A stretch of 64,000 nt of DNA from Myxococcota bacterium (GTDB lineage Bacteria; Myxococcota; XYA12-FULL-58-9; JALHOP01), in contig JBGGMJ010000158.1 in assembly GCA_041288095.1 (NCBI GenBank), forward strand, positions 11,133 through 75,132. The letters are read 5' to 3'. This document shows positions 27,850-60,783 of the stretch, in pieces. Position 1 is the first letter of the stretch; each line of letters opens with the position of its first letter. The position numbers were made by a program, and so were the translations under genes. The notes beneath the pieces were generated by a model that worked only from the letters and a program-made list of their open reading frames with translations, was not told the origin of the DNA and did not search any database.

Positions 27850-28809
27850 ATGCGTTTCGCTGTCCTCATCGCGCTGGCCACCAACATCGCGTGTGCAACC
27901 TCGGGAACCACCGCGGGGGCGCCGTCCGCCGGCGCGCACAGTGCTCACTCCGCGCCGAAAGCCGACGCCGCTCCGGCCACCCCGCCCGCGGTGCTCACCA
28001 CCTTCGACATGCCGAAGCTCGACGGCTTGACCGGCCTGAAGGGCCGCATGGTCAACGAGCGCGTCTATCGCGTCGACATGATCCGCCCCGAGACCCCGGT
28101 GACCGCGGAAAACGTGAAGATCATCAGCGGCTTCGCGCTCCCCACGTGGGCGACGTTCCAGCACGTCGATGCGCAGACCACGATGGTCATGGGCGACATC
28201 TTCCTCACGGAATATCAGATCACCCCAATCATGAAGAAGGCGCTCGAGCTCGGCTTCGAGGTCACCGCCCTGCACAACCATTTCCTCTGGGAAACGCCCA
28301 AGGTGATGTTCATGCACTTCGCGGGGATGGGGAACATCGACCAGCTGGCCGGGAACGTCGGCACCTTGTTCAAGGAGCTCAAGGTCCCCGTGGTCACGCG
28401 CCCCGTGCGGCCCGTCATCGACTCCGGCGCTTCGAAGCTGAACGCCGAGGCGATCGACGCCGCCATCGGCTACAAGGGCCGCGACCGCAACGGCACCTAC
28501 TTGCTGGCCATCGATCGCCCCGTGAAGATGGGCGGCCACGACGTCGCTCCGGGCATGATGATGGCGACGCTGGTGCTCATGGCCGGCACGCAAGAGATGG
28601 CGTTTGCCACCGGTGACATCGCCGTCTACCCGCAGCACATGCAAGCCGTCATCAAAGCGTGTCTCGATCGCGGCATGGACGTCGTGTCGATCCACAACCA
28701 CATGGTCGACGACGAGCCACGGACGATGTTCGTCCACTACTGGGTCTATGGCCCCGCCGTGGAGATCGCGACCAAGCTCAAGGAAGTCTTTGCGAAGGCA
28801 CCGCAATAA
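27850..28809 (+). CDS. DUF1259 (LppY/LpqO-like) secreted protein
   Basis: Two tandem domains with ALHNH...FMH and SIHNH...FVHY, and a signal peptide from ATG 27850. Confidence 0.8.
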   Translation: MRFAVLIALATNIACATSGTTAGAPSAGAHSAHSAPKADAAPATPPAVLTTFDMPKLDGLTGLKGRMVNERVYRVDMIRPETPVTAENVKIISGFALPTWATFQHVDAQTTMVMGDIFLTEYQITPIMKKALELGFEVTALHNHFLWETPKVMFMHFAGMGNIDQLAGNVGTLFKELKVPVVTRPVRPVIDSGASKLNAEAIDAAIGYKGRDRNGTYLLAIDRPVKMGGHDVAPGMMMATLVLMAGTQEMAFATGDIAVYPQHMQAVIKACLDRGMDVVSIHNHMVDDEPRTMFVHYWVYGPAVEIATKLKEVFAKAPQ

Positions 28810-29719
28810 CGGTCAGGCGAGGCGCCGCGAGCGCCACGCCGATGCCTCCCAAGACCGCGGCACCGCCGAGCACGAGTCGCACCGTCGGGTGCTCGCCGAA
28901 AGCGAACACCGCGACGCCGGCGGTGATGACCGGCTGCAGGTTCATGAACATGAGCACCTGCGTCGGGCTGAGCTTGCTGAAGGAATACGACCACAACAGC
29001 GACATCAGCGCGCCGCCTAGTGTGCCGAGGAGCACGATCGCCGTGATGGTGCTCGAGGTCAGTGCTCGCGCCGTGGCGGTGAGATAGTCCCAGTCGGTGG
29101 CGATGGCCGCCGGCAAGAGCAGCACGGCGGCGCTCGCCATGCGGTAGACGGCCACGGTGAACGGCGCGTAGCGTGTAAGGGCGCGCTTCTGCAAGAAACC
29201 GCCGAGCGCCATGCCGAACGCCGCGGCGAGAACGACCGCGTCGGCGACCAGATCGCCGCTCACCGCCAGGTCACCGTTCGACGGCCAGACGAGCACGATG
29301 ACGCCGGCCAGAGTCGCGGCCGCGCCCAACAGCTTACGTAGAGAGATGGGCTCGGCGCGCAAGAGGATGCCGAGCCCCAAGCTCCACAGAGGCGTGGTGG
29401 CGAACAAGATGGAGACGCGCGCCACCGGACTTTTCGTGAGCGCGTAGGCCAGCCCAACGGTCGTCAGGCAGAAGGTCATCAGGCCGACGAAGGCGAGCGA
29501 CGGTAGGTCGCGTGCGCTCAAGCGCATCACCTTGGCTCGGCCCATCGCCATGCCGCAGGCGAGCAAGCAGCCCGTGCCGACCAGATAGCGCAGGCAGCCC
29601 AAGGAGACGGGAGGGACTTCCTTCACCGCCACCTTGAGCAGGAGCGTCGACATCGACGCGCACAGCGCCGCCCCGAGGCACGCCAACAAGGCCACGAACT
29701 CTTTGGCAGTGCGAGTCAC
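28778..29719 (-). CDS. DMT/EamA family transporter, last gene of the PKS operon
   Basis: About 10 hydrophobic segments in two repeats, NLQPV..FGE. GTGA overlap with the PKS stop. Confidence 0.88.
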   Translation of the reverse strand: MTRTAKEFVALLACLGAALCASMSTLLLKVAVKEVPPVSLGCLRYLVGTGCLLACGMAMGRAKVMRLSARDLPSLAFVGLMTFCLTTVGLAYALTKSPVARVSILFATTPLWSLGLGILLRAEPISLRKLLGAAATLAGVIVLVWPSNGDLAVSGDLVADAVVLAAAFGMALGGFLQKRALTRYAPFTVAVYRMASAAVLLLPAAIATDWDYLTATARALTSSTITAIVLLGTLGGALMSLLWSYSFSKLSPTQVLMFMNLQPVITAGVAVFAFGEHPTVRLVLGGAAVLGGIGVALAAPRLTVIAVPSQRLP

Positions 29720-32040
29720 TCGTGCGTGATGGCTTCGCTGAGATGCGACACCAGCGCATCGACAGTGGGATGTTCGAACACGAGAGTCAACGGCAATGTG
29801 AGGCGCAAGCTGGACTGCAAGCTGTTGCGGACCGACATGGCGAGCACCGAGCTCAGACCCGCGTCGACGAGGTTGCGGTCGCCCGGCAGGGCGCCGGCGA
29901 TGTCGCTGCCGAGAGCGGTGACCAGCTCCGACGTCACGCAGTCGCGCAAGAGGCGGCCGCGCTCGGCCGCGTCGGCGAGCCGTATGCGATCGGCGATGCT
30001 GCTCGCGTCGTTGGCCGCCGCGAAGACGACGCCGTCCGCGGTACCGCGCGTCGGCGATATCGTCGCCCAGAAACGTGTCCGCTGAAACGGATACGTAGGC
30101 AGCGGTAGCGCGTTCTGACGGCGGCCGCCGAGCACACGCTGCCAGTCGCAGCGGATGCCGCGCAGCTGCAGCGACGCCGCGAGCCGCACGACGGTCTGGC
30201 GCTGCGGCACGGTCGCGGCGTCACCGACGACCAGCACCAAGCCCCCCTGGCGATCCTGCTCGACCGAGGCGTGCACGAGCTCGTCGCCGCCCTGCCCGCC
30301 GGCGGCCGCGCCGCGCGCCGCGAGCGCTTCGTCGACGACGGGCATGCCGAGGGCCGCGAGCTTCGCCGCGTCGGTCGGGGAGCCGCGAAATTGCACGACG
30401 AGCTCCGGCGGCTCTTCGTTGGGCTTCTCGCTATGACGGGTCACCCGCGAGAAATCGCCCCTCCCTACCTCGGCGAGGCGCGCCGCCAGCTCATCGCGAT
30501 CCTCGGCGAAGATGGCGAGGCGCTCGGGAAACGTAGCGCCGGACGAGTTGGCCGCGGCGCAAAGGTCGGCAATCGCGATGGTGGGACGCTCGCGCATGTA
30601 CGCGACGTAGGACTTCGCCATGTCGGACAAGGCGGCGCTGGTCTTCCCCGAGAAGATCAAGCTCACTGGGCCTCGGCGGCTCGACGCCGGCGCCGACGGC
30701 TCGAAGGGGCGTTCCTCGAGAATGACGTGGCCGTTGGTGCCGCTCAATCCGAACGCACTCACGCCGGCGCGTCGCACCCCGTCCTGCGGCGGTACCCAGG
30801 GCCGGCGCTCGGCCGCGAGCGCGAGTGGCGTCTCTTCGAGAGCGATGTGCGGATTGGTGTCGAGCAAGTGGAGCTGCGGCGGCATCTCGCCGTGCTGGAG
30901 CGCCTGGACCACCTTGATGACGCTGATGACGCCCGCCGCCGATTCGGTGTGACCGAAGTTGGTCTTCACCGAGCCGACGACTGTCCGCTTGAGCGACCCG
31001 TCCGGGGATTCGAAGACGGCGGCCAGCGCGCCCACCTCGATGGGGTCGCCAAGGCGCGTGCCGGTACCGTGCGCCTCGACGTAGTCGATTTGCTCCGGGC
31101 GCACGCCGGCGTTGGTCATCGCCTGCTTGATGAGCGCCCGGTGCGCGATGCCATTCGGCGCGGTGAGGCCCTGTGCTCGGCCGTTGTGATTGACCGCTGA
31201 AGCGGCCACGACCGCGAGCACCCGGTCGCCGTCACGCTCGGCGTCGGCGAGGCGCTTGAGCAACAACAAGCCGCAGGCGTCGCCGCGAACCATGCCGTCG
31301 GCGCCGGAGTCGAAGGCCCGACATCGGCCGGTCGGAGAGATCGCTCCCATGGCCGACAGGCAGACGTTCAGCCACGGGTCGACGACGATGTTGACGCCAC
31401 CGGCGAGCGCGAGGTCGCACTCGCCTCCACGCAGGGCGACGCAGGCGCGGTGCAAGGCAACGAGGGACGACGAGCAAGCCGTATCGACGGACTCGCACGG
31501 GCCATGGAAGTCGAAGAAGTAAGAGACACGTCCCGCGGCGATGTTGTGGGATGTGCCGGTCGCCGCGTACATGTCGAGCGTCTTGGGGCCGGTGTACGTC
31601 GACAAGAAGTAGTCGCCGTTCATGATCCCCAAGAACACTCCGGTCGAGCTCCCGGCGAGCGCGGTCGGGTCGATGCCGGCGCGCTCGATGGCTTCCCACG
31701 CCACTTCGAGGACCAAGCGCTGCTGTGGATCCAACTGCATCGCCTCGGGACGCGAAATGCCGAAAAATCCCGCGTCGAACTGGTCGACACCTTGGACGAC
31801 ACCCGCCCAGCGCGTGATCATCTTGCCCGGCGTGCCCGGATGCGGGTCGTAGAAGCTCTCGGCGTCCCAGCGATCCATGGGGATCGCGCCGACCATGTCG
31901 CGTCCGTCACGCACCAAGGTCCACAGCTCCTCCGGCGTGCTGGCGCCCGGGACGCGGCAAGCGGCGCTGATGATGGCGATGGGCTCGCTCAAGCGACCAC
32001 GGAGCTTCCGCGCCAATATGCCGCGCTTGTCCTCGCTCAT
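29716..32040 (-). CDS. Type I PKS 4: KS - (AT deleted) - ACP
   Basis: KS DTACSSS, EAHGTGT, FGHTE. Only about 80 aa between the KS-AT linker and LPTYPFQR. ACP AGLSSVLA. No thioesterase. Confidence 0.9.
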   Translation of the reverse strand: MSEDKRGILARKLRGRLSEPIAIISAACRVPGASTPEELWTLVRDGRDMVGAIPMDRWDAESFYDPHPGTPGKMITRWAGVVQGVDQFDAGFFGISRPEAMQLDPQQRLVLEVAWEAIERAGIDPTALAGSSTGVFLGIMNGDYFLSTYTGPKTLDMYAATGTSHNIAAGRVSYFFDFHGPCESVDTACSSSLVALHRACVALRGGECDLALAGGVNIVVDPWLNVCLSAMGAISPTGRCRAFDSGADGMVRGDACGLLLLKRLADAERDGDRVLAVVAASAVNHNGRAQGLTAPNGIAHRALIKQAMTNAGVRPEQIDYVEAHGTGTRLGDPIEVGALAAVFESPDGSLKRTVVGSVKTNFGHTESAAGVISVIKVVQALQHGEMPPQLHLLDTNPHIALEETPLALAAERRPWVPPQDGVRRAGVSAFGLSGTNGHVILEERPFEPSAPASSRRGPVSLIFSGKTSAALSDMAKSYVAYMRERPTIAIADLCAAANSSGATFPERLAIFAEDRDELAARLAEVGRGDFSRVTRHSEKPNEEPPELVVQFRGSPTDAAKLAALGMPVVDEALAARGAAAGGQGGDELVHASVEQDRQGGLVLVVGDAATVPQRQTVVRLAASLQLRGIRCDWQRVLGGRRQNALPLPTYPFQRTRFWATISPTRGTADGVVFAAANDASSIADRIRLADAAERGRLLRDCVTSELVTALGSDIAGALPGDRNLVDAGLSSVLAMSVRNSLQSSLRLTLPLTLVFEHPTVDALVSHLSEAITHE

Positions 32041-35000
32041 GCTTCGCTGCCGAGGAGCTCGTCGGCCAACACGCCGAGCTCGCCTTCGTCGAGTTGCTCG
32101 ATCGCCGACAAGACCGCGGCAAGGCGAGGACTGACGGAGGCCGAGGCCGCGAGGTTGGTCGTCTTGGTGACTGCCTTCTGCGGCGCGGCGGCGGGCGCCG
32201 CCACCGCCGGCTGAGCGGCCGCTGTAGCGGGCACGACGCGACTACCGAGCTTCTCGGTGATGAAGCCCAGCAGGAGCTGCAAGGTCGGATACTCGAAGAG
32301 CAAGGTGACCGGCAGCGAGATGCCCAACGCCGTCTGTAGACGGTTGCGCAGCTGGACCGCGACGAGTGAGTCGAGGCCGAGGTCCTTGAGCACCTGCTTG
32401 GCGGCGACACGTTGGTCGGCGGCGAGCCCCAGAGCGGCAGCGACCTCGCGGTGCACGAGCTCGCGCAAGCCCTCCCCGCTTCCGACCACCGCCGGCTCGG
32501 CCGCCGCGGCGACCGTCGCCTGCGCTACGGCGCTGGCCGGCGCCGGCTTGCTGCCGAGCTTCGACAAGGTGTCGGCCTCGATGCCGAGGTTGCGCACGCC
32601 GAGCATCTCGACGACGACCCGCCCCGAAGCGTCGTAGACCCTTATGTCGGAGGAGAACACGGGGCGCGTCGCCGTCGTCGACACGGGGCGCGCGACGACG
32701 TGCGACCAAACCTCGCGCCCGAGCTTGCCGTAGACGCGGATACGGTCCGCTCCAGCGAACATGAACGAGCCGGGCGTCTTGGCGTCGCCACTCACGGCCA
32801 CGTAGGTGGGGTGGCCGCAAGCATCCAGCAGGGCCGGGTGCGCGAACGCGAAGTCGCCCTCGCCGACGACGTGCTCGGGGAGCACGATGTGTCCGAGCGC
32901 CTCGCCCACGGCGTCCGGCGCCCGCGAGACCTCGCGCATGCCGCGAAACGCGGCGCCATAGTCCTGGCCGTTGGCACGCATGGCCGCGTAGAGTTGCTCG
33001 ACCGAGACGGACTTCTTCAAGCGGGCCCGCAGCGCCGCGAGCGACTCGTAGCCGGGCGCCGCCTGGCTCTCGGGTGCGCGTGCGATCGAGCCCGTCGTAT
33101 GGGTCACCCACTCACCACCGCCGGCGGCGCGACTCTCGATGACGTACGCCAAACGGCCGGGCTCGGTCACTTTCGCGTCGAAGCTCACCTCGCGCGGCAC
33201 TGCCTCGAGCAAGAGAGCGCGCTCGAAGCTCACGTCCAACAAGGCGGTCGCTTCTCCGTGGAACGCGTCGCGCGCCGCCGCGAGCGCCATCTCGATGAAG
33301 CCCATCCCCGGAAACACCGGGATCCCGAAGTTACCGTGATCCTGGAGGAAGGCGTGCTTGCCCGTGCCGTGCTCCGACACATAGCGCGACATCGATCCGC
33401 TTTCGCGGCGGCCGAGCAGCGGATGCGCCGCCGCCGCTTCGACAGCGGGCTTCGACTCGAGCCAGCAACGTTGACGCTCGAAAGCATAGGCTGGCGTCGA
33501 CAGCGAGCGCGGGGCACCGGCGGCAGGCCGTGGTGCGCTGCCGCCCGCGGCGAAGGCAGCCGCCAGAGCGACCGAGAAGCGCAGATCATCCGGTACATCG
33601 TCATCGAGACTCGGCACCACCGCGATGGCGCTGTCGGTCAACCCGGTGAAGACGAGCTCGCCGAGCTCGGTGCCGGCCCCGACCTCGACGCAGACCTCGC
33701 AGCCCAGCTTGGCGAGGCTGCGCACGGCTTCCTTGACCTGCACCGACGACCGCAACAAGCGAACCCAATAGTCCGGGTTGGTGACGTCGCCCGGCTTGGC
33801 CGGACGCCCGGTGACCGACGAGATGATCGGCAGCCGCGGCTCACCAAGGGTGATGCGGCCGATGATGGCGGAGATGTCGGAGGCCTTCGCGTCAGCCAGC
33901 CGGCTGTGAAACGGCAGTCGCGCGGCGAGGCGCGTCGCCGGCACACCCTGCGTCTGCAGCTGGGTGAGCACCCCGGCGAGGTCTTCCTGCTTGCCGCCGA
34001 TGAGCGTGCGCTTGCTGCTCTCCGATGCGAGCACCTGAACCCTCGGGCTCGTGCCCAAGAGCGCCCTGGTGCGTTCGAGATCTTCCTCCACGGCGTAGGC
34101 GACGAAGCCTTGCGCGGCCTCCGCGTAGATCTTCGCCAACGCGTGCAGCGCTCGCGCTCCGTCCTCGAGGCCGATGACACCCGCGGCATACGCCGCCGCC
34201 AGCTCGCCGAGTCCGCTTCCGAAGACAGCGAGCGGCACGGGGCCGTGCTCCGACCAGGTCTCCCAGAGCGCGCACTGCGCGACGTACGAGACCACCGCGG
34301 CACTCGCGAGGGAGCCGTCCGTACTCGGGCGACCGCTGGCGAAGATCTGGGTCAACGGCGTGTCGAGCTTGAGCACCGCGTTGCAGCGCTCGACGACGTC
34401 GCGAAAGCGCGCATGATTCGCGTAAAGGTGGCGCGTCAGCGCCGCGATGTTCGGCTGCGTGCCGGGGAAGATGAACCCGGTCTTGGGCGCGCCACGCTGA
34501 GCACGCTCGCCACGGCGCACGACCGCGCCGGCGACAGGCTCACCGCCGGCCTCGAGAGCCGCGAGCAGCTCGTCGCGACTACGGGCCACCACGGCAAGGC
34601 GGTGCGCGAGGCTTGCTCGCCCACGGCTCGCCGCGGCGACCAGCGCCGCCGCCGATGAGCCCGGATGCTCGCGCATGTAGCGCGCCCACGATGCGACCAG
34701 CGTGTCGAGCGAGGAGCGGGTGCGGGCGGAAAGCGCGAAGACGTAGGGCCCGCCATCGACCGCTTTAGCGGACGTGATCGGTGGTTCTTCGACGATCACG
34801 TGGGCGTTGGTGCCGCTCATGCCGTACGACTGCACGCCGGCGCGACGCGGCCTGAAGCCGCGCGCCCAGGGTCGTGACTCGGTAGCGACGATGAGCTCGC
34901 CGTTCTGCGGCCGACACTCGGGGTTGAGCTCGCGCAAGTGCAAGTGAGGAGGCAAGGCTTCGTGACGCATGGACACGAGCACCTTGAGCAAGCCAGCGAG

Positions 35001-42847: not shown

Positions 42848-42851
<4 letters not shown>
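40227..42851 (-). CDS. Type I PKS 2: KS - AT0 (internally truncated), no ACP
   Basis: KS DTMCSSS, EAHGTGT, VGHLE. AT GRGIG lacks Ser. LPTYAFQR is followed directly by a docking-like helix. Confidence 0.9.
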
Positions 42852-49831
<6,980 letters not shown>

Positions 49832-51836: not shown

Positions 51837-52826
51837 CTATCGCGGATGAGAAGCATAGAATCGGAGCATGCGTTCGGCGTCCTTGACCAGCGTTTGCGCC
51901 ACCGGTGGCAGGGCGATGACCTTGCGGGTCCGGGACGCGACTACCAGCGCGTTGGTGCGCTCGAGATGAATCTCGGAGACCGTGTCGACGACGCCGACGA
52001 CGGTGAAATCCTGCGCTGGCGTGCCGAGCGCCTCGAGGTCGTTCGAGATGCTCACGCGCAAATCGATGCGCAGGACATCCTCGCCGCGGCAACGGTCGAA
52101 CAGCATGGTCTCGCTGTCGACGACCGACAACATGTCCACGATCGCGGTCGGGAAAGGCGTTTGCACCATGCGCGTGAGCACCTGGCGCTGCGCGAAGTCG
52201 AGCACGCGCACGAACTGGCTGCAGGTCACCGGGTGGCCGGGCGCGCAATCGCGGCCGGCGCTGATTTGGTAAGAGAGGCGCGCGCCACGGGTGACGTTGC
52301 CGACGAAGCCCTCGTCGAGCGTGCCGATGCCCCGCACGTCGCGAAAGCGTTGAATGGATTGTGGCGCGGCGTCGAGCTGCGGCAACGTCGCCAGCAGCTC
52401 GGCGCGCGGCAACGACATCTCGGGCTCGCGACCGTCGTCCTCGAGCCAGAAGGCACCGCTCGCCGCCATCGACGGCAAGTCGGTCGGGGCGCGTTTTTCC
52501 GGGTCTTCGGTGAGCTCCGACGTCGAGCCCAACGCGCACTTCGTCTCGAACAGCATGTTGCCGTAGCTGCCGCCGGTGACGCCGAGCCGCAGGTGGTCCC
52601 AGGCGCTGAAGCGGCGCAGCAAACGCGATACCGGCACGGTGAGGCGAGTGACGTAATTGCCGAAGTGCAGGATCTTGCCGGCCCGATTGGTGATCTGCGC
52701 CGCGGTGTTCGAGCGACCGGCGACCAAGCGCGACGACTGCGCCGCGGCGGCGAGCGTCGTCGCGGCGTATTCGTCGACGACGCCGACCCCGACGTGCGCG
52801 TAACTGAGCTGTTGCTCGATCAACAT
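51837..52826 (-). CDS. Hypothetical protein, possibly double-hotdog fold (LnmK-like)
   Basis: 329 aa, strong RBS GAGGAGG, in operon. Segments LSYAHVG..DE and YQISAGRD...SQFVRVLD loosely recall LnmK-type proteins; the fold is inferred. Confidence 0.5.
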   Translation of the reverse strand: MLIEQQLSYAHVGVGVVDEYAATTLAAAAQSSRLVAGRSNTAAQITNRAGKILHFGNYVTRLTVPVSRLLRRFSAWDHLRLGVTGGSYGNMLFETKCALGSTSELTEDPEKRAPTDLPSMAASGAFWLEDDGREPEMSLPRAELLATLPQLDAAPQSIQRFRDVRGIGTLDEGFVGNVTRGARLSYQISAGRDCAPGHPVTCSQFVRVLDFAQRQVLTRMVQTPFPTAIVDMLSVVDSETMLFDRCRGEDVLRIDLRVSISNDLEALGTPAQDFTVVGVVDTVSEIHLERTNALVVASRTRKVIALPPVAQTLVKDAERMLRFYASHPR

Positions 52827-52842: not shown

Positions 52843-53622
52843 TCAGCGCGCCTTGGTCTCGATCCAAGCCTTGGTGAACACGGAGTCGTCGACCGCCGAG
52901 GTATCCATCTGCAGCGCCTTCACCAGCGTGAAGCGCTCCTTGTCGATGCGATCTTGCACGCGGTACTCCTTGACCATGGTGACGGTCTCGCCGTTCACCT
53001 GGGTCTTCGAGTATCCGGTATAGAAGACGGTGCGAAGCGCCTTCCCGGAGGCGGAGTAGGTCTCCATCTTCAACGGGTTGCCGCTCGCCTTCTCGATCCA
53101 GAAGTCGACGAGAGGCTCGCCGGTGTCCGACCCGGGCTTGGCCTTGAGCTTCAGATGGTGGACGTCGAAGCTACCGACCTTCTCCTCGGCGACGTACTCC
53201 GCGTCGTAGTCCGAGTTCAGCGACCAGGTGTCGAAGTCGGCGGCGCGTACGTCACCGACCTGGATGAACTCGCGGGCCGTGCGCCGGTCCCACTTGCCGC
53301 TGCTGGCGTCGTATGCCCAGCTGTTGCCGTCGATGCGCAAGAAGGCGCGCCCGGCCTCGGTCTTCGGCTTGATGAAGAGCACCGTCATGCGGTGACTCGC
53401 GTCGCGGCGATAGATGACGCACTCGTAGGCGCGCACCGGGTAGTCCTTGCGGTGGTCCTCGATGAAGACGTGACGCGTGAAGTCGCTCGGATAGCTGAAG
53501 CGCTTGTCGATGACCTTCAGCATGCCGACGACCTCATCGTGAGACGGCGCGGCGCGGGCGACAGAGACGGCGGTGAATGAGCAGAGCAACCAGGTAAGCA
53601 ACACGCGCATGACAGACCTCAT
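52843..53622 (-). CDS. Outer-membrane lipoprotein-sorting (LolA-like) protein
   Basis: Signal peptide, LFIKPKTEAG..FLR, DDSVFTKAWIE. TGATG coupling to the permease. Confidence 0.8.
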   Translation of the reverse strand: MRSVMRVLLTWLLCSFTAVSVARAAPSHDEVVGMLKVIDKRFSYPSDFTRHVFIEDHRKDYPVRAYECVIYRRDASHRMTVLFIKPKTEAGRAFLRIDGNSWAYDASSGKWDRRTAREFIQVGDVRAADFDTWSLNSDYDAEYVAEEKVGSFDVHHLKLKAKPGSDTGEPLVDFWIEKASGNPLKMETYSASGKALRTVFYTGYSKTQVNGETVTMVKEYRVQDRIDKERFTLVKALQMDTSAVDDSVFTKAWIETKAR

Positions 53623-54977
53623 CAGAAAGTGTCGCGCATGGCGTCGGTCGGGCCAATGCGCGCCGCCTGCGCGGCGGGGTACAGCGCCGCGGCAACGGTA
53701 ATGCACACCATGAGAAAGAGAACGAAGAACAGGTGACCGTACGAAACCGCCATGTGTAACGTATCGCCGAACAGCAGGTAGCGCGCGGTGCTGTTCGCGA
53801 GCGTCACGCCGGCGCCGTTGACGGCGGCGACGATGACGAGCCCAACGGCCGCGCCCAAGCCCACGGCCATCACCGCGAGCAGCGCGGTCTCGAGAAGCAC
53901 CATGCCGACGAGCTGCGCTGGCGAGATACCGAGCGCGCGCAAGGTACCGAGCTCGACGGTGCGCGACCGCACCGCCACCGTAGTGGCGCTGATGGCACCG
54001 AGCCCAACCACGAGACAGAGCATGGCAGTCAGCACGATCAAGATGATCTTAGACGCGTGAACGCGCCAATCCATCCACCACATTTCGTTCGACCACGGCC
54101 CAATCTCGAAACGCTGGCCAATCCAGCTCTCGCTCCAGGCGTCCCAGAGCTTGAAAATCGCCTGTGTCGACCGCGGGATGGAGAGCTCCCAGTTGGCGGC
54201 GGCAAAGCCTTCACGCAGGGTGGCGGCCGCCTCGTCGATGCGGCGGATGCTGGGCAGGCGCAGGCCGACGATGGTCGTCTGCGTCGGCTGCAAGGTGAGC
54301 AGCGTGCGCGCCGTTTCCTTGTCCGAATAGCAGAAGAAGTTACTGAAGTCGGGCACGTCACGGACGACGGCGACCACGGTGGCATCGACGGCGCTCTCGA
54401 TGGCCTGCGTGGCGGTGACGCGCAGGGTGATCGTGTCGTTGACGTCCACGCCGAGCTTGCGTGCTTGCTCGGCGAAGATCACCACGCTGTGTGGCTCGCG
54501 AAGCCGCTCGATGTCGCCTACGACCTCCGCGCCAGCGCCATCGACGTATTCGTGGCGCGGCGCCGGCACGAGCACCTCGGCGAGGCCTCGGTCCTTCGCG
54601 ATATCGACACCGTAATAGAAGATGCAAGTCGTCTCGGAGTTGTTGCTGGAGAGGCCGGTGAGTCCGCGAATGCGGTCATCGACGAACGCGTCGGGCACCA
54701 GCCGCTGCGCCAGCGCCATCACCTCGTCACGCTTGTCGATCGCGAAGGTGCCGAAGCTGCGGCGGTTCTTCAGGTAGCCCAGCACGTGCACCTGGCCACC
54801 GCCGAGGATCGACGAGACCTCGACGACGCGATCCGCGACGCCCTGCAGCAGGCCCATCGACAGCACGAGGAGCAACGTCGCGGCGGCGACGGCCGCGCCC
54901 ACCAAGCGGTTGCGCTTCTTCGCCTGGAACAGGTAGCGAACGCTCAAGCGTATCCACAGAGGCATCTGCATGCTCAC
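53622..54977 (-). CDS. ABC transporter permease (FtsX/LolC-E-like)
   Basis: N-terminal TM, periplasmic domain, RTVELGTLRALG, C-terminal TMs, PAAQAARIGP. GTGA overlap with the upstream permease. Confidence 0.88.
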   Translation of the reverse strand: MSMQMPLWIRLSVRYLFQAKKRNRLVGAAVAAATLLLVLSMGLLQGVADRVVEVSSILGGGQVHVLGYLKNRRSFGTFAIDKRDEVMALAQRLVPDAFVDDRIRGLTGLSSNNSETTCIFYYGVDIAKDRGLAEVLVPAPRHEYVDGAGAEVVGDIERLREPHSVVIFAEQARKLGVDVNDTITLRVTATQAIESAVDATVVAVVRDVPDFSNFFCYSDKETARTLLTLQPTQTTIVGLRLPSIRRIDEAAATLREGFAAANWELSIPRSTQAIFKLWDAWSESWIGQRFEIGPWSNEMWWMDWRVHASKIILIVLTAMLCLVVGLGAISATTVAVRSRTVELGTLRALGISPAQLVGMVLLETALLAVMAVGLGAAVGLVIVAAVNGAGVTLANSTARYLLFGDTLHMAVSYGHLFFVLFLMVCITVAAALYPAAQAARIGPTDAMRDTF

Positions 54978-57103
54978 CAGCGTTGCCGCATCGCGACTTG
55001 CGGCTCGGTAGATGCCGCCTCGAATGCCGGAAGTGCGGTGGCGATGAGACTGCCAACCACGGTGGCTGATATCGCGCCGATCAACTCGGCGACGCCGAGC
55101 ACCGGAAATAGACGCGGACCGCCGAAGATGACCTCCATGGCCGGCGATTGCGCCGGTATGCCATAGCGGCCGACCCAGGCGAGCAGCGCCACACCGGCGG
55201 CGGCGCCGACCAAAGCGGAGAGGAAGCTCAAGATCAGAGATTCGCACATCAACAAGCGCAGGACGAATCCCCGGCTCGCGCCTTGCGCCCGCAGCGTGCC
55301 GATCTCGCCTTCACGGCCGGCGGTGGCGATGACCACGCCGAGGTTCGCGACGATCAGCGTCACCAGGAAGACGGCGATGCCGCCCATGCCGATCTGCACC
55401 TGCAAGAACGAGAGCTGCGTCGCGAATCGAGACGCCGCCTCGCGCCATGTGCTCACCCGCGCCGAGACACCGGCGCTCTGGAGCGCCGCGGACAGCCGGG
55501 CTCGAGCCGCCTCGACACCATGCTCGTCAGCCAACCAGACGACGACCGCCGGCACCAGGTCGCCGGTCGTCGCGGCGCCGGCTTTCTTGGCCGCGTCCTT
55601 GCGGAAGCTCTTGCCTTCGTCGAGCGCCGAGTCGACGAGCGCCGTGAAGCCCCCGGCCCCGGCATGCAGCTCCTCTTCGACCACGAAAGCGCCGCCGAAG
55701 AGCGCCGCCTCGTCGGACTTGCTCATGCCCTCCGCGGCGCCGATGCCGTAGCGCTCGCGCATGCCGGCCATCTCGGCCAGCGTCTCGGCGGTGGGCTCGC
55801 CGTAGATCTCGCGGAAGGTCGCGAAGTCCACGAGGTTGTAGGAAACGTGCTTGGCCATCTGCACGCCGCGGAAGCGGTAGGTGCCGAACACCGTGGCGCG
55901 CACCGACTTCGGAGCGCCGTCACGCCCGCGCGAGTTGACCGAAACGATATCGCCGACGTCGACCGAGTACTTGCGCAGCAACGGCGCGATCGCCTCGTAG
56001 ATGAAGGCACGCCGCTTGGCGAAGTTGTCGTTGTCGACGGCGAGCAGGCCACGAAGCTGAGCACCGAGCTCACCGTCGAGCGTCGGGTCGAACGCGCGAA
56101 TACGCTCCCGCAGCGCCGCGACCTTGTCGGCCGGCAATTGCAGCCCGATGAGGTCGTACATTTCGACGAGGCGCGCGCGCCGCTGGCTCATGTCGGCATC
56201 CGACAGCCGGCCTCGGCTCGCGAGCAGCTCGGCCAAGTCGTCGAGCGCCAGCAGCACGGGATGGCGAGCTTGAGCCTCGCGTCGATCGTGCTCGAGCAGG
56301 ATGCCGCGCACCCCCGGGGGAATGAGCTTGCCCGAGACCAGCTCGAAGCGCCCCGAGGCTTTTTGCAACGCCTCGAAGTCCACGCCGAGCACCGGCGAGC
56401 GCAAGATGCGCGTGTCTCCGGCCCAGCGCACGATCTTGGTGTCGAGGAACTCGATGCCCTTGGCCGGGTCCTGCTCGAGCTCCGTCCAGAACGTATCGCT
56501 CACCGCTCGCTCGAGGGCCTGGACGGCACCGGCATTTTCGGCGGCGTCCCTGGCAAGGCTGCCGTAGCCCGCTTTCACGTGATTCAGCATGACGCCCGCC
56601 GCTTGGCGAATGTCCGCGATCACGGCCGCGGCATCGCCACGCGGCTCACGCTCGTAGAGCCGGCGAAGCGCCTGGACCTTCTCTTGGAGCGGACTGTTGA
56701 TGCGAATGTTGGCGTTCCAGATACCGATTGGCGCGAAGCCACGCACCTCCGGCGCTTGCTCGAGCACCTTGGCGACCGCTTCGTAGTCCTTGAGATTTCC
56801 GCTATCGCGTTGCTCGGCGGTCCAAGCGGTCACCAGCATGTCGAGCGTGTCGCGGGCTCCATTCGAGTAGACCTGGAGGTGACCGACGAACGATTCGGTC
56901 AAGCTATGCTCGAGCGCTTGCGAGCTCGAGCGCACCACGGAGCCAATCACGATCAACAGCGCCGTGTTGAGCATGAAGCTCAAGGAGAGCGTGAGGCTTT
57001 TGCCTCGGTGCGCGAGCACCGAGCGCCACGCCAGGCCGACCAGCAACCGAACTCGACTCAGCACGTGAGCACTCGCGGGAACGATCGCATCAGGCCGCCG
57101 CAC
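54974..57103 (-). CDS. ABC transporter permease (FtsX-like) with a large periplasmic domain
   Basis: REGEIGTLRAQG and C-terminal TMs; about 500-aa soluble domain. Confidence 0.85.
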   Translation of the reverse strand: MRRPDAIVPASAHVLSRVRLLVGLAWRSVLAHRGKSLTLSLSFMLNTALLIVIGSVVRSSSQALEHSLTESFVGHLQVYSNGARDTLDMLVTAWTAEQRDSGNLKDYEAVAKVLEQAPEVRGFAPIGIWNANIRINSPLQEKVQALRRLYEREPRGDAAAVIADIRQAAGVMLNHVKAGYGSLARDAAENAGAVQALERAVSDTFWTELEQDPAKGIEFLDTKIVRWAGDTRILRSPVLGVDFEALQKASGRFELVSGKLIPPGVRGILLEHDRREAQARHPVLLALDDLAELLASRGRLSDADMSQRRARLVEMYDLIGLQLPADKVAALRERIRAFDPTLDGELGAQLRGLLAVDNDNFAKRRAFIYEAIAPLLRKYSVDVGDIVSVNSRGRDGAPKSVRATVFGTYRFRGVQMAKHVSYNLVDFATFREIYGEPTAETLAEMAGMRERYGIGAAEGMSKSDEAALFGGAFVVEEELHAGAGGFTALVDSALDEGKSFRKDAAKKAGAATTGDLVPAVVVWLADEHGVEAARARLSAALQSAGVSARVSTWREAASRFATQLSFLQVQIGMGGIAVFLVTLIVANLGVVIATAGREGEIGTLRAQGASRGFVLRLLMCESLILSFLSALVGAAAGVALLAWVGRYGIPAQSPAMEVIFGGPRLFPVLGVAELIGAISATVVGSLIATALPAFEAASTEPQVAMRQRW

Positions 57104-57782
57104 CGGAATCGACGAAGTTGCCGTCGCGCATGCGCACCGCCACGTCGGCGATCTGCATGAGCGGCTCGTGATGCGTCGAGAAGATGATGGTGGTGTTGTA
57201 CTTCTTCGGCAGCGAGCGAATCAGATCGACGACGACCGTCGAGGTCCGCGAGTCGAGGTTCGCCGTCGGCTCGTCGGCGAGCACCAGCGGCGGCCGCTTG
57301 ACGACGGCACGCGCGATGGCGACGCGCTGCTGCTCACCACCCGAGAGCTCGCTCGGCTTGCGGTTCGCCTTCTCGCCGAGACCGACGTCGGCGAGGATTT
57401 GATGAACCACCTTGGCGCGCTCACCCGCGGTCATGCCGCCGGCGAGCAGCAGCGGCATCTCCACGTTCTGAAAGGCGGTGAACACGTGCAGCAGGTTGAA
57501 CGATTGGAAGACGAAGCCGACCTTGCGCAAGCGATAAGCGTCCTGGCCCGCGCGATCGAGGTTCGAGATGTCGGCACCGTCGACCCGGATCTCGCCCGAG
57601 GTCGGCCGGTCCATGCCGCCGACCAAGTTGAGCAGGGTCGACTTACCGCTGCCGCTCTGGCCGGCGATCGCCAAGAACTGGCCGGCCTTCACATTGAGAC
57701 TCGCGCCCCGCAGCGCTTCGACCGTCTGGTTGCCCAGGCGGTACTCTTTGCGCACGTTGCGGAGCTCGACGATGTAATCCAT
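57090..57782 (-). CDS. ABC transporter ATP-binding protein (LolD/MacB-like)
   Basis: [41 protein letters not shown]. Start at MDYIVEL. Confidence 0.95.
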
Positions 57783-57793: not shown

Positions 57794-58561
57794 TCAGGTG
57801 CTCTTCAGGTCTGTCGCGAGCCACTCGAGGAGCGCAGCCTCGCACGTGTGCAAGAAAAAGTGATGCCCATCGAAGGTGCGCAGGTCGAGATTCTTCGATG
57901 AATGACGGCGCCAGTCTTCGAGGTCGGCCACGGGGGTCGCGTCGTCGTTGGCACCGCCGAGCGCCACGATGGGAACGTCGAGAGGGTCTTCCTCGCGGAA
58001 CTTGTAGCCCTCGAACATGACCATGTCGGCGCGCAGAATCGGCAGCACGACGGACAGCAGCTCCGCGTCCGCCAAAACCTCCGGCGCGAAACCGCCAGGG
58101 TAACGGCGGTTCATGGCGTCCACCAAGCCGTTGTCGTCGAGGTGCAAGAAACTGCCATGCACGGCTACGGGGTAGAGATGGGGAGCGCGGCGCCCGGAGA
58201 CGTAAAGCCGGCTCGGCGCCCTCACCTGCCGCCGCCGGCATTCGCGCGCCAGCTCGAACGCCAGCAACGCGCCGAGGCTGTGCCCGAAGATCGCGAAGGG
58301 CCTGTCCATCAGCGGCAGTAGGCCGTCCATGATAGCGGGCACGAGCGTCGCCGTGTCGGTGTGCAGCGGCTCGCGCATGCGCATCCAGCGCCCCGGCAGC
58401 TCGACCGGACAAACCTCGATGTCCGCGCTCAAGGTCTTCGACCAGTTGCGATAGATCATGCTGCTGCCGCCGGCGTACGGCAGACAGAACAGGCGCAGCC
58501 TCGCGTCAGGGCGCGTCTGGTGAGAGGCGACCCACCTGGATGGTGGCGGTGACATGAACAC
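57794..58561 (-). CDS. Type II thioesterase
   Basis: LFCLPYAGG, ELPGR, FGHSLG, LRAD, GHHFF. Confidence 0.92.
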   Translation of the reverse strand: MFMSPPPSRWVASHQTRPDARLRLFCLPYAGGSSMIYRNWSKTLSADIEVCPVELPGRWMRMREPLHTDTATLVPAIMDGLLPLMDRPFAIFGHSLGALLAFELARECRRRQVRAPSRLYVSGRRAPHLYPVAVHGSFLHLDDNGLVDAMNRRYPGGFAPEVLADAELLSVVLPILRADMVMFEGYKFREEDPLDVPIVALGGANDDATPVADLEDWRRHSSKNLDLRTFDGHHFFLHTCEAALLEWLATDLKST

Positions 58562-58566: not shown

Positions 58567-58815
58567 CTAGCCCGCCTTCTTCCTGGCGATGAACTTGGCG
58601 ATGTTGGCCACCGAGTTGAAGTTCGCGAGCTGGAGGTCGTCGTTTTCGACGCGCAGGCTGTGCTCCTTCTCGACGTACTGGACGAGCTTCAGCGCGAACA
58701 TCGAGTCCACGAAGCCAGCCTTGAAAATGTCATCGTCGTCGCCGAACTTGGCGTTGTCCTCGTAGATGACGAGATTCGAAGCGATGAAGTTGCGGATCTG
58801 CTCTCTGATATCCAT
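58567..58815 (-). CDS. Discrete acyl carrier protein 1 (FkbJ/ZmaD-like)
   Basis: 82 aa MDIREQIRNF...GFVDSMFALKLV...NFNSV. Confidence 0.88.
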   Translation of the reverse strand: MDIREQIRNFIASNLVIYEDNAKFGDDDDIFKAGFVDSMFALKLVQYVEKEHSLRVENDDLQLANFNSVANIAKFIARKKAG

Positions 58816-58841: not shown

Positions 58842-59912
58842 CTACTTTTCGCGAGGGGTGCTGGGCGTCACGACGGAAACGTATTTTGGAAAAGGCTGGA
58901 TGTTCGTCAGGTCGTTCTCGAAGACGATACGACCGTTCTCCCCCGACTCGACTTCCTTGAACTGCGAGAACTTGTACGACACGTACATCATGCGATTGCG
59001 TTCGGTCTGGATGAAGTCGGCGAGGAACCGCGCGCCGGCCTCCTTCGCCTGCTGCATGATGTAGCTGAGAAAGATCGTACCGACGCCGCGCGACATCACG
59101 CGACACGACATGAGCATCAGGCGCAGGTGCCAGACCTCGCGGCCGGTCTCGACGAGCGCGAGACCGATCTTGCCGTACGACCCGAACTTGTCGGTGAGCT
59201 CGCAGATGAGCAGCTGGTGCTCGTTCGAGCGACGCAGCTTGTCGAGCTCCTCGTACGAGAAGGTGACGCCGGTCGAGTTGAGCTGATTGGTGCGCACCGT
59301 GAGCTCTTCGGCGCGTTGGAGGTCGGCCTCCGTCGCGCGCGAGATGACGAAGCGCATCTCGAGGCTCTGGAGAAACTCCTCCTTCGGCCCCTTGTACTCG
59401 GCCTCGATGTGATCGCGCTGCGCCGACTCGAGATACATGAGCCGGCGGCGACGTGAGTCCTCGGTGAGGTACTTCGGTGAGAAGCGCGGCTCGCCGAGAA
59501 GCTTGGTGTAGTCGCTCCAGTAGTCCGTCGAGTTGATGACGACGAGGTCGGGATGCGCGGCCTGCACCTCGGCGCGCTCGAAGTCGTCGTCGTCGATGAA
59601 CGCGATGGTGTCCATGCCGATGTTGAGAGCTTCCTTGATGCTCGCCAAGCTCTCACTCTTCGCGCTCCAGGTGATCTGCGGGAAGAGGAAGTAGTGGTCG
59701 ATGCCGAGCTGCTTGAGCCGCGCCATGGCATCGCCGTGATTGTTCTTGCTGGCGATGGAGAGAAGGATGCCTCGCTCGTCGAGCGCCTTGAGGGTCTCGA
59801 CGATGCCCGCCCGAAGCGTCAGGTCGTCCTTCTCGAGCAGCACTCCCTTCCACAGGGTGTTGTCGAGATCCCATACCAGTGCCTTGAGCTCTTTTGGCTT
59901 CCCCTTACCCAT
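58842..59912 (-). CDS. FkbH-like glyceryl-ACP-forming phosphatase/transferase (short type)
   Basis: VWDLDNTLW, ASKN, FIDD, RTNQLN, DKFGSYG, LMSCRV. GAGGAG RBS. Confidence 0.92.
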   Translation of the reverse strand: MGKGKPKELKALVWDLDNTLWKGVLLEKDDLTLRAGIVETLKALDERGILLSIASKNNHGDAMARLKQLGIDHYFLFPQITWSAKSESLASIKEALNIGMDTIAFIDDDDFERAEVQAAHPDLVVINSTDYWSDYTKLLGEPRFSPKYLTEDSRRRRLMYLESAQRDHIEAEYKGPKEEFLQSLEMRFVISRATEADLQRAEELTVRTNQLNSTGVTFSYEELDKLRRSNEHQLLICELTDKFGSYGKIGLALVETGREVWHLRLMLMSCRVMSRGVGTIFLSYIMQQAKEAGARFLADFIQTERNRMMYVSYKFSQFKEVESGENGRIVFENDLTNIQPFPKYVSVVTPSTPREK

Positions 59913-59916
59913 CTCC

Positions 59917-60783
59917 TCACCTCTGTTGTCGCGCGTAGTCGAAGAACCCCTTGCCCGACTTCTTGCCCAGCAAGCCCGCATCCACCATCTTCTTCAATAG
60001 CGGACACGGGCGGTATTTCGAATCGTTGTAGCTCTCGTACAAGACTTCGACCGACTGCAGGATGGTGTCCAAGCCAATCAGGTCCGCGGTCGCGAGCGGC
60101 CCCATCTTGTGCGCGAAGCCCAAACGGAAAATCTTGTCGACGTCGGCGGGCGAGGCGACACCGTCTTGGACGACGTACGCGCACTCGTTGATCATCAACA
60201 TCATGACGCGGTTGGTGACGAAGCCGGGATAGTCGTTGACCACCACGGCTTCCTTGGCGATGACGCTCGCGAGCTCCTTGGCGCGGCCGATGGTGGCGTC
60301 GCTGGTGTGATAACCGCGAATCACCTCGATCAGCTTCTTCATCGGCACCGGGTTCATGAAGTGCATGCCGACGACACGAGCTGGGTTCGGGACCAGCGAG
60401 CCTACGCGCGTGATCGAGACGCACGAGGTGTTGACCGCGAAAACCGTCTCGGTGCTGCAGATCTTCCCGAGGTCGCGGTAGACGTTCGACTTCACCTGAA
60501 AGTTCTCGGTGACGTTCTCGACCACGAAGGTGGCGGGCGCGAGGTCGCTTATTTCGCGGGTGAAGCGGATGCGCCCCAGCACGTCTTCATCGCGCACGGC
60601 GCGGAAAGCACCGTCGGAGAAGCGCAGCAGATTCGCGTTTTCGCGGACCGCCGCGGGGCCTGCCGCTAAAGCGGACTCCGCTATGTCGTGGACGATGACC
60701 GTCTTGCCACGACAGGCCAGATCCGTCGCGATGCCGCACCCCATGATTCCCGCGCCAACGACTCCGTAGATGCCCTCTGTCAT
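59917..60783 (-). CDS. 3-hydroxyacyl-CoA/ACP dehydrogenase (FkbK/ZmaG-like)
   Basis: GAGIMG, VENVTE, NTSC, GMHFMNP, PGFVTNR, MGPLATADLIGLD, LGKKSGKGF. Confidence 0.92.
   Translation of the reverse strand: MTEGIYGVVGAGIMGCGIATDLACRGKTVIVHDIAESALAAGPAAVRENANLLRFSDGAFRAVRDEDVLGRIRFTREISDLAPATFVVENVTENFQVKSNVYRDLGKICSTETVFAVNTSCVSITRVGSLVPNPARVVGMHFMNPVPMKKLIEVIRGYHTSDATIGRAKELASVIAKEAVVVNDYPGFVTNRVMMLMINECAYVVQDGVASPADVDKIFRLGFAHKMGPLATADLIGLDTILQSVEVLYESYNDSKYRPCPLLKKMVDAGLLGKKSGKGFFDYARQQR

Follow-up and report, generated by a model that had tools for sequence, protein, structure and literature searches.

How is a modular polyketide synthase (PKS) supplied with extender units when most of its acyltransferase (AT) regions are dead or missing? 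This question is raised by an operon on contig C158 (JBGGMJ010000158.1) of a Myxococcota assembly (GCA_041288095.1; 5.85 Mb, 212 contigs, 90% complete). We analysed it within a stretch of 64,000 nucleotides, C158:11133-75132, which reaches the contig end and is called the window below. The operon consists of 18 genes (g01 to g18), all on the minus strand and running from 60783 to 28778. On balance, we favour the reading that it is an intact, lineage-restricted operon for a PKS of cis-AT ancestry with decayed ATs, which would be primed from glyceryl-acyl carrier protein (ACP), extended at most three times, and provided with hydroxymalonyl units in trans by g15, a ketosynthase III-like (KSIII-like) protein. 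The product would be a small, highly oxygenated polyketide. This reading builds on the observed domain order and active-site states, two FkbH/ACP sets, the genomic associations of g15 and g09, and the fold of g09.

The genes are listed in the order of transcription, with family calls from Pfam and NCBIfam scans of the operon proteins and E-values after the family names.

59917..60783, minus: g01, FkbK-like 3-hydroxyacyl-CoA/ACP dehydrogenase (3HCDH), 288 aa (3HCDH_N 3.8e-48, 3HCDH 2.3e-32)
58842..59912, minus: g02, short FkbH, 356 aa from MGKGKP (TIGR01686 3.7e-82, 276 bits, cut-off 146.65)
58567..58815, minus: g03, discrete ACP, 82 aa (PP-binding 1.7e-4, 22.2 bits, cut-off 20.8)
57794..58555, minus: g04, type II thioesterase, 253 aa (Pfam Thioesterase 1.2e-40; GHSLG motif)
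57090..57782, minus: g05, LolD/MacB-type ATP-binding cassette (ABC) ATPase, 230 aa from MDYIVEL (ABC_tran 1.3e-34; TIGR02211 LolD 8.2e-67, below cut-off)
54974..57103, minus: g06, FtsX-type permease, 709 aa (Pfam FtsX 9.8e-11; lolCE 3.1e-11, below cut-off)
53622..54971, minus: g07, FtsX-type permease, 449 aa from MQMPLW (Pfam FtsX 3.3e-14)
52843..53622, minus: g08, LolA_like periplasmic protein with an N-terminal signal-like segment (PF17131 LolA_like 2.1e-26)
51837..52826, minus: g09, LnmK-like double-hotdog protein, 329 aa (predicted from a fold match; no Pfam or NCBIfam match)
51522..51821, minus: g10, divergent discrete ACP, 99 aa, between g09 and g11 (GLDSL motif; PP-binding at E 0.061 only)
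49847..51562, minus: g11, long FkbH, 571 aa (N-terminal extension, then TIGR01686 1.4e-84 on 217-542; PDB 3slr on 205-375; FkbH_N E 0.23)
42848..49831, minus: g12, PKS1, AT0-ACP (loading) and KS-AT-DH-KR-ACP (module 1), with the sole intact AT
40227..42851, minus: g13, PKS2, KS-AT0, first half of the split module 2
39050..40216, minus: g14, FkbI-like acyl-ACP dehydrogenase (ACAD) (Acyl-CoA_dh_1/N/M 1.3e-42 to 7.9e-23)
38085..39053, minus: g15, KSIII-like protein, 322 aa (weak ACP_syn_III 4.5e-4; Cys116-Gln248-His279)
32037..38072, minus: g16, PKS3, KR-ACP (second half of module 2) and KS0-AT0-DH-ACP (module 3)
29716..32040, minus: g17, PKS4, KS, linker, post-AT-linker remnant and ACP, with no AT, reductive domains or thioesterase (TE)
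28778..29719, minus: g18, EamA/DMT (drug/metabolite transporter) protein, last operon gene (EamA 2.1e-37, two stretches)

Here KS, DH and KR are ketosynthase, dehydratase and ketoreductase domains, and KS0 and AT0 are those with a catalytic residue lost. The scans upheld the gene order and families of the initial annotation, with one refinement: its three ABC genes are precisely one ATPase (g05) and two FtsX permeases (g06, g07). The annotation had also described co-oriented genes that overlap or lie less than 30 nt apart, and the positions of the open reading frames (ORFs) bear this out. With plausible start codons assumed, the gaps are 2-26 nt and the overlaps 1-14 nt. The exception is the g10/g11 overlap, which is 41 nt for the longest ORF or 8 nt from the next GTG.

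Active-site states along the synthase

The domain line AT0-ACP-KS-AT-DH-KR-ACP / KS-AT0 / KR-ACP-KS0-AT0-DH-ACP / KS-ACP, as first annotated, proved correct residue by residue in Pfam matches, motif reading and an alignment of the AT regions. The Cys and the two His residues are present in KS1, KS2 and KS4. In KS3, the HGTGT of the other KSs is AGTGS, and with this His lost it cannot decarboxylate an extender. Three KSs are thus competent for elongation, so the ceiling of three elongations in the initial annotation holds if no module iterates. KR1 has an LDD motif, and the catalytic His/Asp motifs are found in both DHs (HxxxDxxxxP and DxxxQ in PKS1, HxxxGxxxxP and DxxxH in PKS3).

The AT regions form a graded series within one operon: intact, point-dead, truncated and deleted. 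AT1 is intact (Gln, GHSIGE, Arg, RAFHS), and its xAFHS motif is malonyl-like. In the three AT0s, Gly replaces the Ser of GHSxG. In the loading AT0 (GYGPGE), Tyr additionally stands in place of Gln and His in place of Arg; the PKS3 AT0 (GSGLGE) has Ala in place of Arg, and the PKS2 AT0 (GRGIGA) has ~80 residues deleted and no xAFH motif. Of the AT region of PKS4, only the post-AT linker is left (LPLPTYPFQRTRFW); the ACP of this protein has the motif GLSS. The ATs of modules 2 and 4 are thus dead or absent. An own intact AT is present in one of the three extending modules, which is not the pattern of a cis-AT PKS, and therefore only one module is able to load itself.

Split modules, KS0-DH 'dehydrating bimodules' and AT-docking remnants belong to the logic of trans-AT PKSs, and the segment KS-AT0 / KR-ACP-KS0-AT0-DH-ACP mirrors such a bimodule. 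Unlike trans-AT systems, however, the operon has AT scaffolds that are still recognisable, and its KSs share 53-57% identity with the KSs of a cis-AT PKS from one genome of the same order. Furthermore, a PF00698 scan of the whole assembly found no discrete AT gene in or near the cluster. The same scan found no stand-alone FabD-like malonyl-CoA:ACP transacylase, which is possibly a gap in an assembly that is 90% complete. Apart from two partial hits, on contigs C150 and C55, the PF00698 matches in the assembly were all to the four AT regions of the cluster.

The KSIII-like protein and its gene neighbourhoods

The candidate for loading the AT-less modules is g15, which a name look-up in a protein atlas returned only under the generic '3-oxoacyl-ACP synthase'. 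Its relatives comprised 114 clusters at E <=1e-10 in a large protein collection, the nearest with 71, 63 and 57% identity. A pattern scan of species-representative genomes gave 318 relatives, spread over at least five phyla. The best 80 of these 318 loci (L014-L093) were taken with 10 kb on each side, and genes were counted by tblastn with the window proteins; simple ORF calling is poor at high GC. The highest identity among the 80 was 54%, in Virgibacillus proomii, followed by a Halothermothrix metagenome-assembled genome (MAG), a Phycisphaerales MAG, many actinomycetes and some Bacteroidota.

A single KS without an AT, and with space enough for one, was present at 67 of the 80 loci; at two the KS lay at the contig edge, and 11 had no KS. 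No full AT domain was found at any of the 80, the sole AT-core match being a 113-residue fragment at L077. Eight of the AT-less modules retained the post-AT linker, as in PKS4. A short FkbH occurred at 47 loci, an ACAD at 50, both at 45, an ACP at 42 and an FkbK-like gene at 26, and the ACAD was immediately upstream of the KSIII-like gene at 16 of the 50 loci with these two genes. In all six loci read by Pfam, the AT-less KS adjoined the KSIII-like gene. The gene orders read in this way were FkbK-FkbH-ACP-ACAD-KSIII-MT (L014; MT, methyltransferase), FkbK-FkbH-ACP-ACAD-KSIII (L016), FkbH-ACP-ACAD-KSIII (L015), FkbK-ACP-ACAD-KSIII-FkbH (L024 and L025) and ACP-KSIII-MT (L067). At L014, L024, L043, L067 and L089, the KS belongs to a KS-linker-ACP-C module of a hybrid of nonribosomal peptide synthetase (NRPS) and PKS, where C is a condensation domain. 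At L025 the locus edge truncates the KS, after which comes C-A-T-TE (A, adenylation; T, thiolation). An Acyl_transf_1 scan covered five host genomes: in four, the locus had no AT within 60 kb, and in one a weak partial AT lay at 32 kb; the single AT in the entire Virgibacillus genome is on another contig.

NRPS-PKS loci built around one AT-less KS-linker-ACP-C module and a KSIII-like gene, with or without the FkbH/ACAD cassette, are widespread. Examples are L043:9548-20739, L089:4635-10960 and L025:65-11995, and the hosts include Streptomyces, Amycolatopsis, Actinokineospora, Micromonospora, Nocardia, Bacillota and Bacteroidota. We know of no product from any such locus.

Is the AT-less KS tied to the KSIII-like gene, or to FkbH cassettes generally? 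As a control for this question, 121 Streptomyces genomes were searched with the short FkbH, which gave 27 loci in 25 genomes (10 kb each side). Six of these loci contained the KSIII-like family: a KS was present at five, AT-less at all five, and any AT at one. The family was absent from the other 21, of which 12 had a KS, one an AT-less KS and 13 any AT. The direction is clear, in that a KSIII-like family member joined to an FkbH cassette goes with a neighbouring KS without AT. No P value is given, because related genomes are not independent.

Mapping of the family profile onto FabH structures showed that Cys112, His244 and Asn274 of FabH correspond to an invariant Cys116, a near-invariant Gln248 and an invariant His279. 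By this alignment, g15 keeps the nucleophilic Cys, and the pair driving malonyl decarboxylation is altered. A Cys-Gln-His site would fit an enzyme that carries a malonyl-type unit without decarboxylating it, although this is not proof. For an unusual ACP-bound extender delivered in trans there is a likeness in colibactin, whose aminomalonyl-ACP is reportedly delivered by ClbG. A PDB search with the family profile found ChlB3, CerJ and DpsC at E 1e-6 to 1e-14, with FabH proper scoring better (1.5e-25). The similarity to these three proteins is distant, but they share with g15 the thiolase/FabH fold, a Cys nucleophile and non-canonical partner residues. A passage in PMC9573744 describes ChlB3 as a KSIII-fold acyltransferase that loads an acyl group on an ACP. 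Full-text searches of the open-access literature found no description of malonyl-type extender transfer by a KSIII fold.

Judged from the gene neighbourhoods, the KSIII-like enzyme of the cassette most likely replaces the lost ATs. More tentatively, the Cys-Gln-His family may be an unrecognised class of trans-acting extender-unit loaders. Drawing on a free ACP, they would supply AT-less KS-ACP modules with FkbH-derived hydroxy- or methoxymalonyl units and possibly with further malonyl-type units bound to ACP, so that a thiolase-fold enzyme would stand in for an AT domain. The operon might then be a snapshot of a cis-AT PKS converting to this mode, with a new glycerate-priming module made up of an LnmK-like hotdog protein, an ACP and a long FkbH.

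Glycerate-derived units, priming and the proposed pathway

Two separate FkbH/ACP sets are present in the operon, g02/g03 and g11/g10, and glycerate-derived units would therefore enter twice. The glycerate-derived building blocks of the initial annotation are thus supported by the family matches of two independent sets, FkbH being a type of glyceryl-ACP synthase. By family, the enzymes for hydroxymalonyl-ACP are complete: FkbH (g02), ACP (g03), FkbK-like 3HCDH (g01) and FkbI-like ACAD (g14). The same enzyme set (FkbH, discrete ACP, 3HCDH-like, ACAD-like) is found in FK520 FkbG-K, zwittermicin A ZmaN/D/G/E and tetromadurin Mad11-15. Unlike those sets, the operon has no O-methyltransferase; none of the FkbG type was found among the 18 proteins with Pfam and NCBIfam, and the unit is for this reason expected to be hydroxymalonyl rather than methoxymalonyl. 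The cassette also differs in being split, with g01-g03 at the head of the operon and g14-g15 between PKS2 and PKS3, and in having a fifth, KSIII-like member. Furthermore, the expected recipient modules here have no working AT, as opposed to the cis AT used by FK520 and zwittermicin, the latter being ZmaA-AT (PMC4207774). The pathway steps assumed for hydroxy- and methoxymalonyl-ACP are those outlined in passages of PMC7489565 and PMC6395733.

Together, g01, g02, g03, g14 and g15 have 43-60% identity to the syntenic FkbK-FkbH-ACP-ACAD-KSIII cassettes of L014, L015 and L016. g01 is 52-55% identical to the FkbK-like genes of L014 and L016, and g02 is 60% identical to the FkbH of L015 and 53% to that of L014. 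The ACP g03, syntenic with the cassette ACPs of L014-L016, is 43-57% identical to them, and g14 is 50-55% identical to their ACADs. The long FkbH g11 is 40% identical to a long FkbH in another genome of the phylum (G106) and 34% to one in Streptomyces longisporoflavus (G406).

The neighbour of this second set, g09, gave by itself no Pfam or NCBIfam match and no PDB sequence match at E up to 10. A pattern scan of genome contigs returned 99 pattern matches with 0 confirmed. Because a word-index protein search found only g09 itself, a full HMMER scan was needed. Among 1.84 billion representatives it found 103 relatives at E <=1e-3, 85 of them at <=1e-10; most are ~325-335 aa, the best is 38% identical, and one source labels relatives as LnmK family. 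Against TIGR04098 (LnmK family), the relatives P0118, P0119 and P0134 score 74-84 bits, with a cut-off of 100, and g09 has no match. An AF2 model of g09 reached a pLDDT of 94.8 from a 54-sequence alignment (31 from the single sequence). Its top Foldseek matches were seven LnmK entries (E 1.1e-14, TM 0.71/0.77), followed by double-hotdog acyl-ACP thioesterases, and the family profile matched only LnmK among PDB sequences (E 1e-3). On this model, the 'hotdog-like' protein of the initial annotation is a predicted LnmK-like double hotdog.

Two relatives are fusions, P0134 of a g09-like part with an ACP and P0177 of a g09-like part with an FkbH domain (289 bits) and an ACP, which ties g09 functionally to FkbH and ACP. 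A search for P0134 in metagenome contigs gave 121 pattern matches, 0 confirmed. The g09 family occurs in 4 of the 401 phylum genomes. In G106, a g09-like gene lies near the long FkbH. The surrounding region (G106:C218, L104:8547-17327) encodes a 712-aa FkbH_N+FkbH protein, then a 1901-aa single-chain acetyl-CoA-carboxylase-like protein (biotin carboxylase, BCCP, ACC_central and carboxyltransferase), then a thioesterase; near this FkbH are the g09-like gene, two short-chain dehydrogenases/reductases (SDRs), a FabA-like gene and a phosphopantetheinyl transferase (PPTase). Two genomes of the same order, G030:C8 (L099:14194-L100:7423) and G038:C52 (L102:15198-L103:8708), have g09-like genes with large PKSs. 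In G030, SDR, AMP-ligase, LuxE and LuxC genes precede the g09-like gene, and this copy has one in-frame TAG.

From these associations, g09 is a putative loading-associated LnmK-like enzyme, with transfer, decarboxylation, dehydration and hydrolysis as candidate reactions. Like LnmK of leinamycin, a bifunctional acyltransferase/decarboxylase acting with the ACP LnmL, it has the double-hotdog fold and an adjoining dedicated ACP. It differs in having 14-16% identity to LnmK, no TIGR04098 match and a His at a conserved Tyr position (see below). In addition, the operon has no HMG-CoA-synthase beta-branching cassette, and the partner of g09 is an FkbH. FkbH and LnmK treated together gave no match in full-text searches of the open-access literature.

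The presence of a long FkbH raises the question of whether the product is a tetronate, butenolide or furanone, which we consider improbable. In that scheme, one FkbH/ACP set would provide the (hydroxy)malonyl extender and g11/g10 would make glyceryl-ACP, which g15 would condense with the beta-ketoacyl chain of PKS4 to form the ring and release the product. g11 is of the long type and has an ACP of its own, g10, although a weak one, as in a tetronate cassette. PKS4, a KS-ACP protein without reductive domain or TE, would leave the required beta-keto thioester. Two FkbH-like enzymes, two ACPs and a FabH-like gene within one PKS cluster are also the likeness to the polyether tetronate clusters (tetromadurin mad, tetronasin and tetronomycin). 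For tetromadurin, a passage in PMC7489565 gives the same logic and sets two FkbH-like enzymes, two ACPs and a FabH-like enzyme beside the methoxymalonate operon. Those clusters, however, have 13 or more modules, as opposed to four small ones here, and the operon has no Agg4 or Agg5 homologues. By Pfam, no Agg4-like acyltransferase, Agg5-like eliminase or 2-oxoacid-dehydrogenase acyltransferase family was found in it, and the sole alpha/beta hydrolase is the Thioesterase-family protein. Agg4 and Agg5 are optional in tetronate cassettes and are needed only for an exocyclic methylene.

The tetronate or furanone suggestion of the initial annotation is not supported, because the g15 family goes with short-FkbH/ACAD cassettes and AT-less KS modules and not with long FkbH. 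None of the 80 g15-family loci had a g11-type match above 36% identity by tblastn, or a homologue of g09, g10, LolA_like, FtsX or the loading AT0, as opposed to the 45 with short FkbH and ACAD. S. longisporoflavus, which we take to be the tetronasin producer species, has both kinds of locus. On C1, a g15-family member (42% identity, 235 bits) is accompanied by a short FkbH, ACAD, FkbK and an AT-less KS. The long FkbH is on C21, possibly the tetronasin cluster. Its neighbours there are a KS-AT PKS, a TE and a KSIII-like ORF, for which the g15-family profile gives only 38 bits. Such profile scores, from one genome, are an indirect comparison; they suggest that g15 stands apart from the KSIII-like ORF next to the long FkbH. 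Moreover, the tetronate scheme still leaves the AT-less module 4 without a loader.

We return to hydroxymalonyl loading by g15, for which the following pathway is proposed. g02, g03, g01 and g14 would make hydroxymalonyl-ACP, with g01 carrying out the first oxidation of glyceryl-ACP and g14 the second, and g15 would pass the hydroxymalonyl unit to the AT-less module 4 (PKS4 KS-ACP) and possibly to the split module 2. g11 would put glycerate on the g10 ACP, and g09 would process the glyceryl unit or deliver it, as starter, to the loading didomain (AT0-ACP). Malonate would be added by module 1, which has a malonyl-type AT, a DH and a B-type KR, to give an enoyl intermediate; module 2 would extend and reduce it, module 3 (KS0-DH) would dehydrate without extension, and module 4 would add the last unit and leave a beta-keto (alpha-hydroxy) thioester. 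Release of the chain might fall to the type II thioesterase, or the chain might cyclise spontaneously; by its family, g04 is proposed to be an editing enzyme or the sole candidate release hydrolase. Export would be through the MacB/LolCDE-like ABC system with the LolA-like protein, and/or through the DMT protein. Without iteration of any module, the skeleton would be ~C9, from one C3 and three C2 units.

Several points weigh against this pathway. The loader role of g15 is proposed from gene neighbourhood, and related genomes are not independent samples. Its Cys-Gln-His site may be compatible with decarboxylative condensation, so g15 may be a condensing enzyme and not a transferase. Neither FkbH nor ACAD lies within 10 kb at 28 of the 80 g15-family loci, so a strict tie of the family to FkbH-derived units does not hold. 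For g09, LnmK-type chemistry may not apply, because g09 and its nearest relative have His at a position that is Tyr in >90% of the family. Only a weak local alignment of 2.5 bits matches this Tyr to the LnmK Tyr, presumably catalytic. The g09-like genes of G030 and G038 are directly upstream of PKS genes starting FAAL-ACP-KS (FAAL, fatty acyl-AMP ligase) and thus accompany FAAL-type loading, not FkbH. A LolA-like/LolCDE-like exporter would be better suited to a lipid than to a C9 polyol; module iteration is kept in mind because this exporter type suits a more lipophilic product. Finally, AT1 or a housekeeping FabD could feed the AT-less modules with plain malonyl, a FabD-like gene being unseen in this 90%-complete assembly.

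The last point leads to an ordinary malonyl-fed PKS, in which AT1 or FabD would load all module ACPs in trans, g15 would prime or condense (for example with a hydroxymalonyl-derived starter or side chain), and g09 would be a chain-releasing hotdog thioesterase. AT1 has all catalytic residues and a malonyl-like motif, the PKS has no TE domain, and the fold matches of g09 next after LnmK are acyl-ACP thioesterases; the condensation-compatible residues of g15 and the 28 loci without FkbH and ACAD also favour this explanation. Nevertheless, we think it unlikely. The g15 family is strongly associated with AT-less KSs (67 of 80 loci; in the control, 5 of 5 loci with a KS against 1 of 12), and in Virgibacillus the sole AT is encoded on another contig. 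Furthermore, g09-like proteins are fused to FkbH and ACP and not placed at PKS termini, and the assembly, as far as it is complete, yielded no FabD-like AT.

Distribution, integrity and setting of the operon

Neither the 22 genomes searched from the order nor the 401 from the phylum yielded an orthologous cluster. A cluster of the same gene order was also not found in full-text searches of the open-access literature. Within this genome sampling and these searches, no characterised cluster matches, in agreement with the earlier impression of an unrecognised architecture. No close relative of g15 was found in the 400 other phylum genomes, a tally that includes an unpublished one (G195), the best being a FabH-type match with 26% identity; of three same-genus genomes, two gave no match and one a match at E 1.7e-4. 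The best long FkbH in the 22 genomes of the order is 40% identical to g11. The nearest cassette relatives are in other phyla, and horizontal acquisition of the cassette therefore fits. GC content is 0.68-0.70 over most of the operon and 0.62-0.67 in its first 9 kb and in the near flanks, which is a weak signal.

Two studies contributed the four DNA runs that contain parts of the region. From study P1 come two soil runs with a nearly identical region, which may be the source data. A cave metagenome run of study P2 (X3) has a variant that is ~97-98% identical, with eight listed pieces of 231-506 nt and 5-13 differences each, over 41.6-59.9 kb. None of the eight contains a frameshift, and the two listed X3-only substitutions in PKS1 (43541 and 44354) are at third codon positions. 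No RNA runs holding the region were listed, and this blank is not evidence on expression. The read and contig tables are dominated by short contigs from other organisms on conserved KS, FkbH and ABC motifs. At 56808-57474, over the ABC ATPase gene, the depth was 50-400 in all four runs; this jump is not a property of the locus but reflects a pile of short contigs, from many other organisms, on the conserved Walker/ABC-signature region.

Could the dead ATs, the KS0 and the orphan distribution mark a decaying or silent cluster, whose pathway is being lost? Three of four ATs are without the catalytic Ser, one of them truncated, and a further AT is deleted; the cluster is absent from the three same-genus genomes and the rest of the order; and no RNA run contains it, although this blank is uninformative. 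Decay is nonetheless very unlikely, because the reading frames are long and the motifs outside the ATs intact. The ORFs extend over ~32 kb without frameshift or internal stop (the PKS ORFs are open for 2327, 2011, 874 and 774 aa), the genes are translationally coupled, and all other catalytic motifs are intact. Moreover, KS0-DH modules and AT remnants are functional in known AT-less systems, and the arrangement of an AT-less KS with a KSIII-like gene recurs at 67 of the 80 loci, in several phyla. The cave variant, with its third-position substitutions and unbroken pieces, likewise argues against decay.

The genes next to the operon are as follows.

60858-61832, minus: response regulator, co-oriented with the operon and 75 nt upstream of g01 (Response_reg 3.9e-9; GC at third codon positions, GC3, 0.81)
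61851-63917, minus: hybrid histidine kinase/receiver (HATPase_c 2.3e-23 and Response_reg; GC3 0.81)
63674-64000, plus: HetI/Sfp-type PPTase, divergent, cut by the contig end (NF042922 4PPT_HetI 4.6e-9; GC3 0.83)
27649-28809, plus: DUF1259 gene, convergent with g18, plus frame supported by GC3

The response regulator and hybrid kinase (60858..63917) are possible regulators of the operon. Just beyond them is the PPTase, as the initial annotation had it, HetI-like and truncated by the contig end. The operon ends with g18, because the downstream DUF1259 gene is convergent by GC3. The minus-strand ORF at 27829-28806 was rejected as a 19th gene, as GC3 favours the DUF1259 frame on the plus strand. 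The FMN-dependent alpha-hydroxy-acid dehydrogenase at 26408-27733 on the minus strand (FMN_dh 5.5e-99, twin-arginine-like N-terminus), just past the operon, was rejected as a member, since the convergent DUF1259 gene lies between; a tailoring role for it is conceivable but unsupported. Farther away, 1658-4690 encodes a DUF1592/DUF1588/DUF1587/DUF1585/DUF1595 protein, then a DUF1552 (HXXSHH) protein, a gene pair typical of Planctomycetes and Myxococcota. The flank at 11850-17072 and 5878-9527 is rich in signalling genes, with two sCache_3_2 histidine kinases, an RR-HDOD-SpoIIE phosphatase (RR, response regulator) and a response regulator; it also encodes a fused double substrate-binding protein and a TonB-dependent receptor.

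As a modular PKS using FkbH-derived units, the operon is of a known kind. Its unusual features are the graded AT loss, the cassette-borne KSIII-like enzyme and the priming unit of LnmK-like protein, ACP and long FkbH. It is unusual in detail, yet one uncharacterised cluster among many, and if the model fails it would be one more orphan PKS cluster. If the model is true, the product would be a small polyhydroxylated polyketide of an uncultured soil myxobacterium, reachable only by heterologous expression, and one operon would show a modular PKS losing its built-in ATs to non-AT folds. This would bear on the origin of AT-less lines and on feeding unusual ACP-bound extenders to engineered PKSs. 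The strongest general lead is the KSIII-like family. Its members stand beside AT-less KS-ACP-C modules in orphan NRPS-PKS clusters of Streptomyces, Amycolatopsis, Bacillota and Bacteroidota, and an assigned function would annotate hundreds of clusters.

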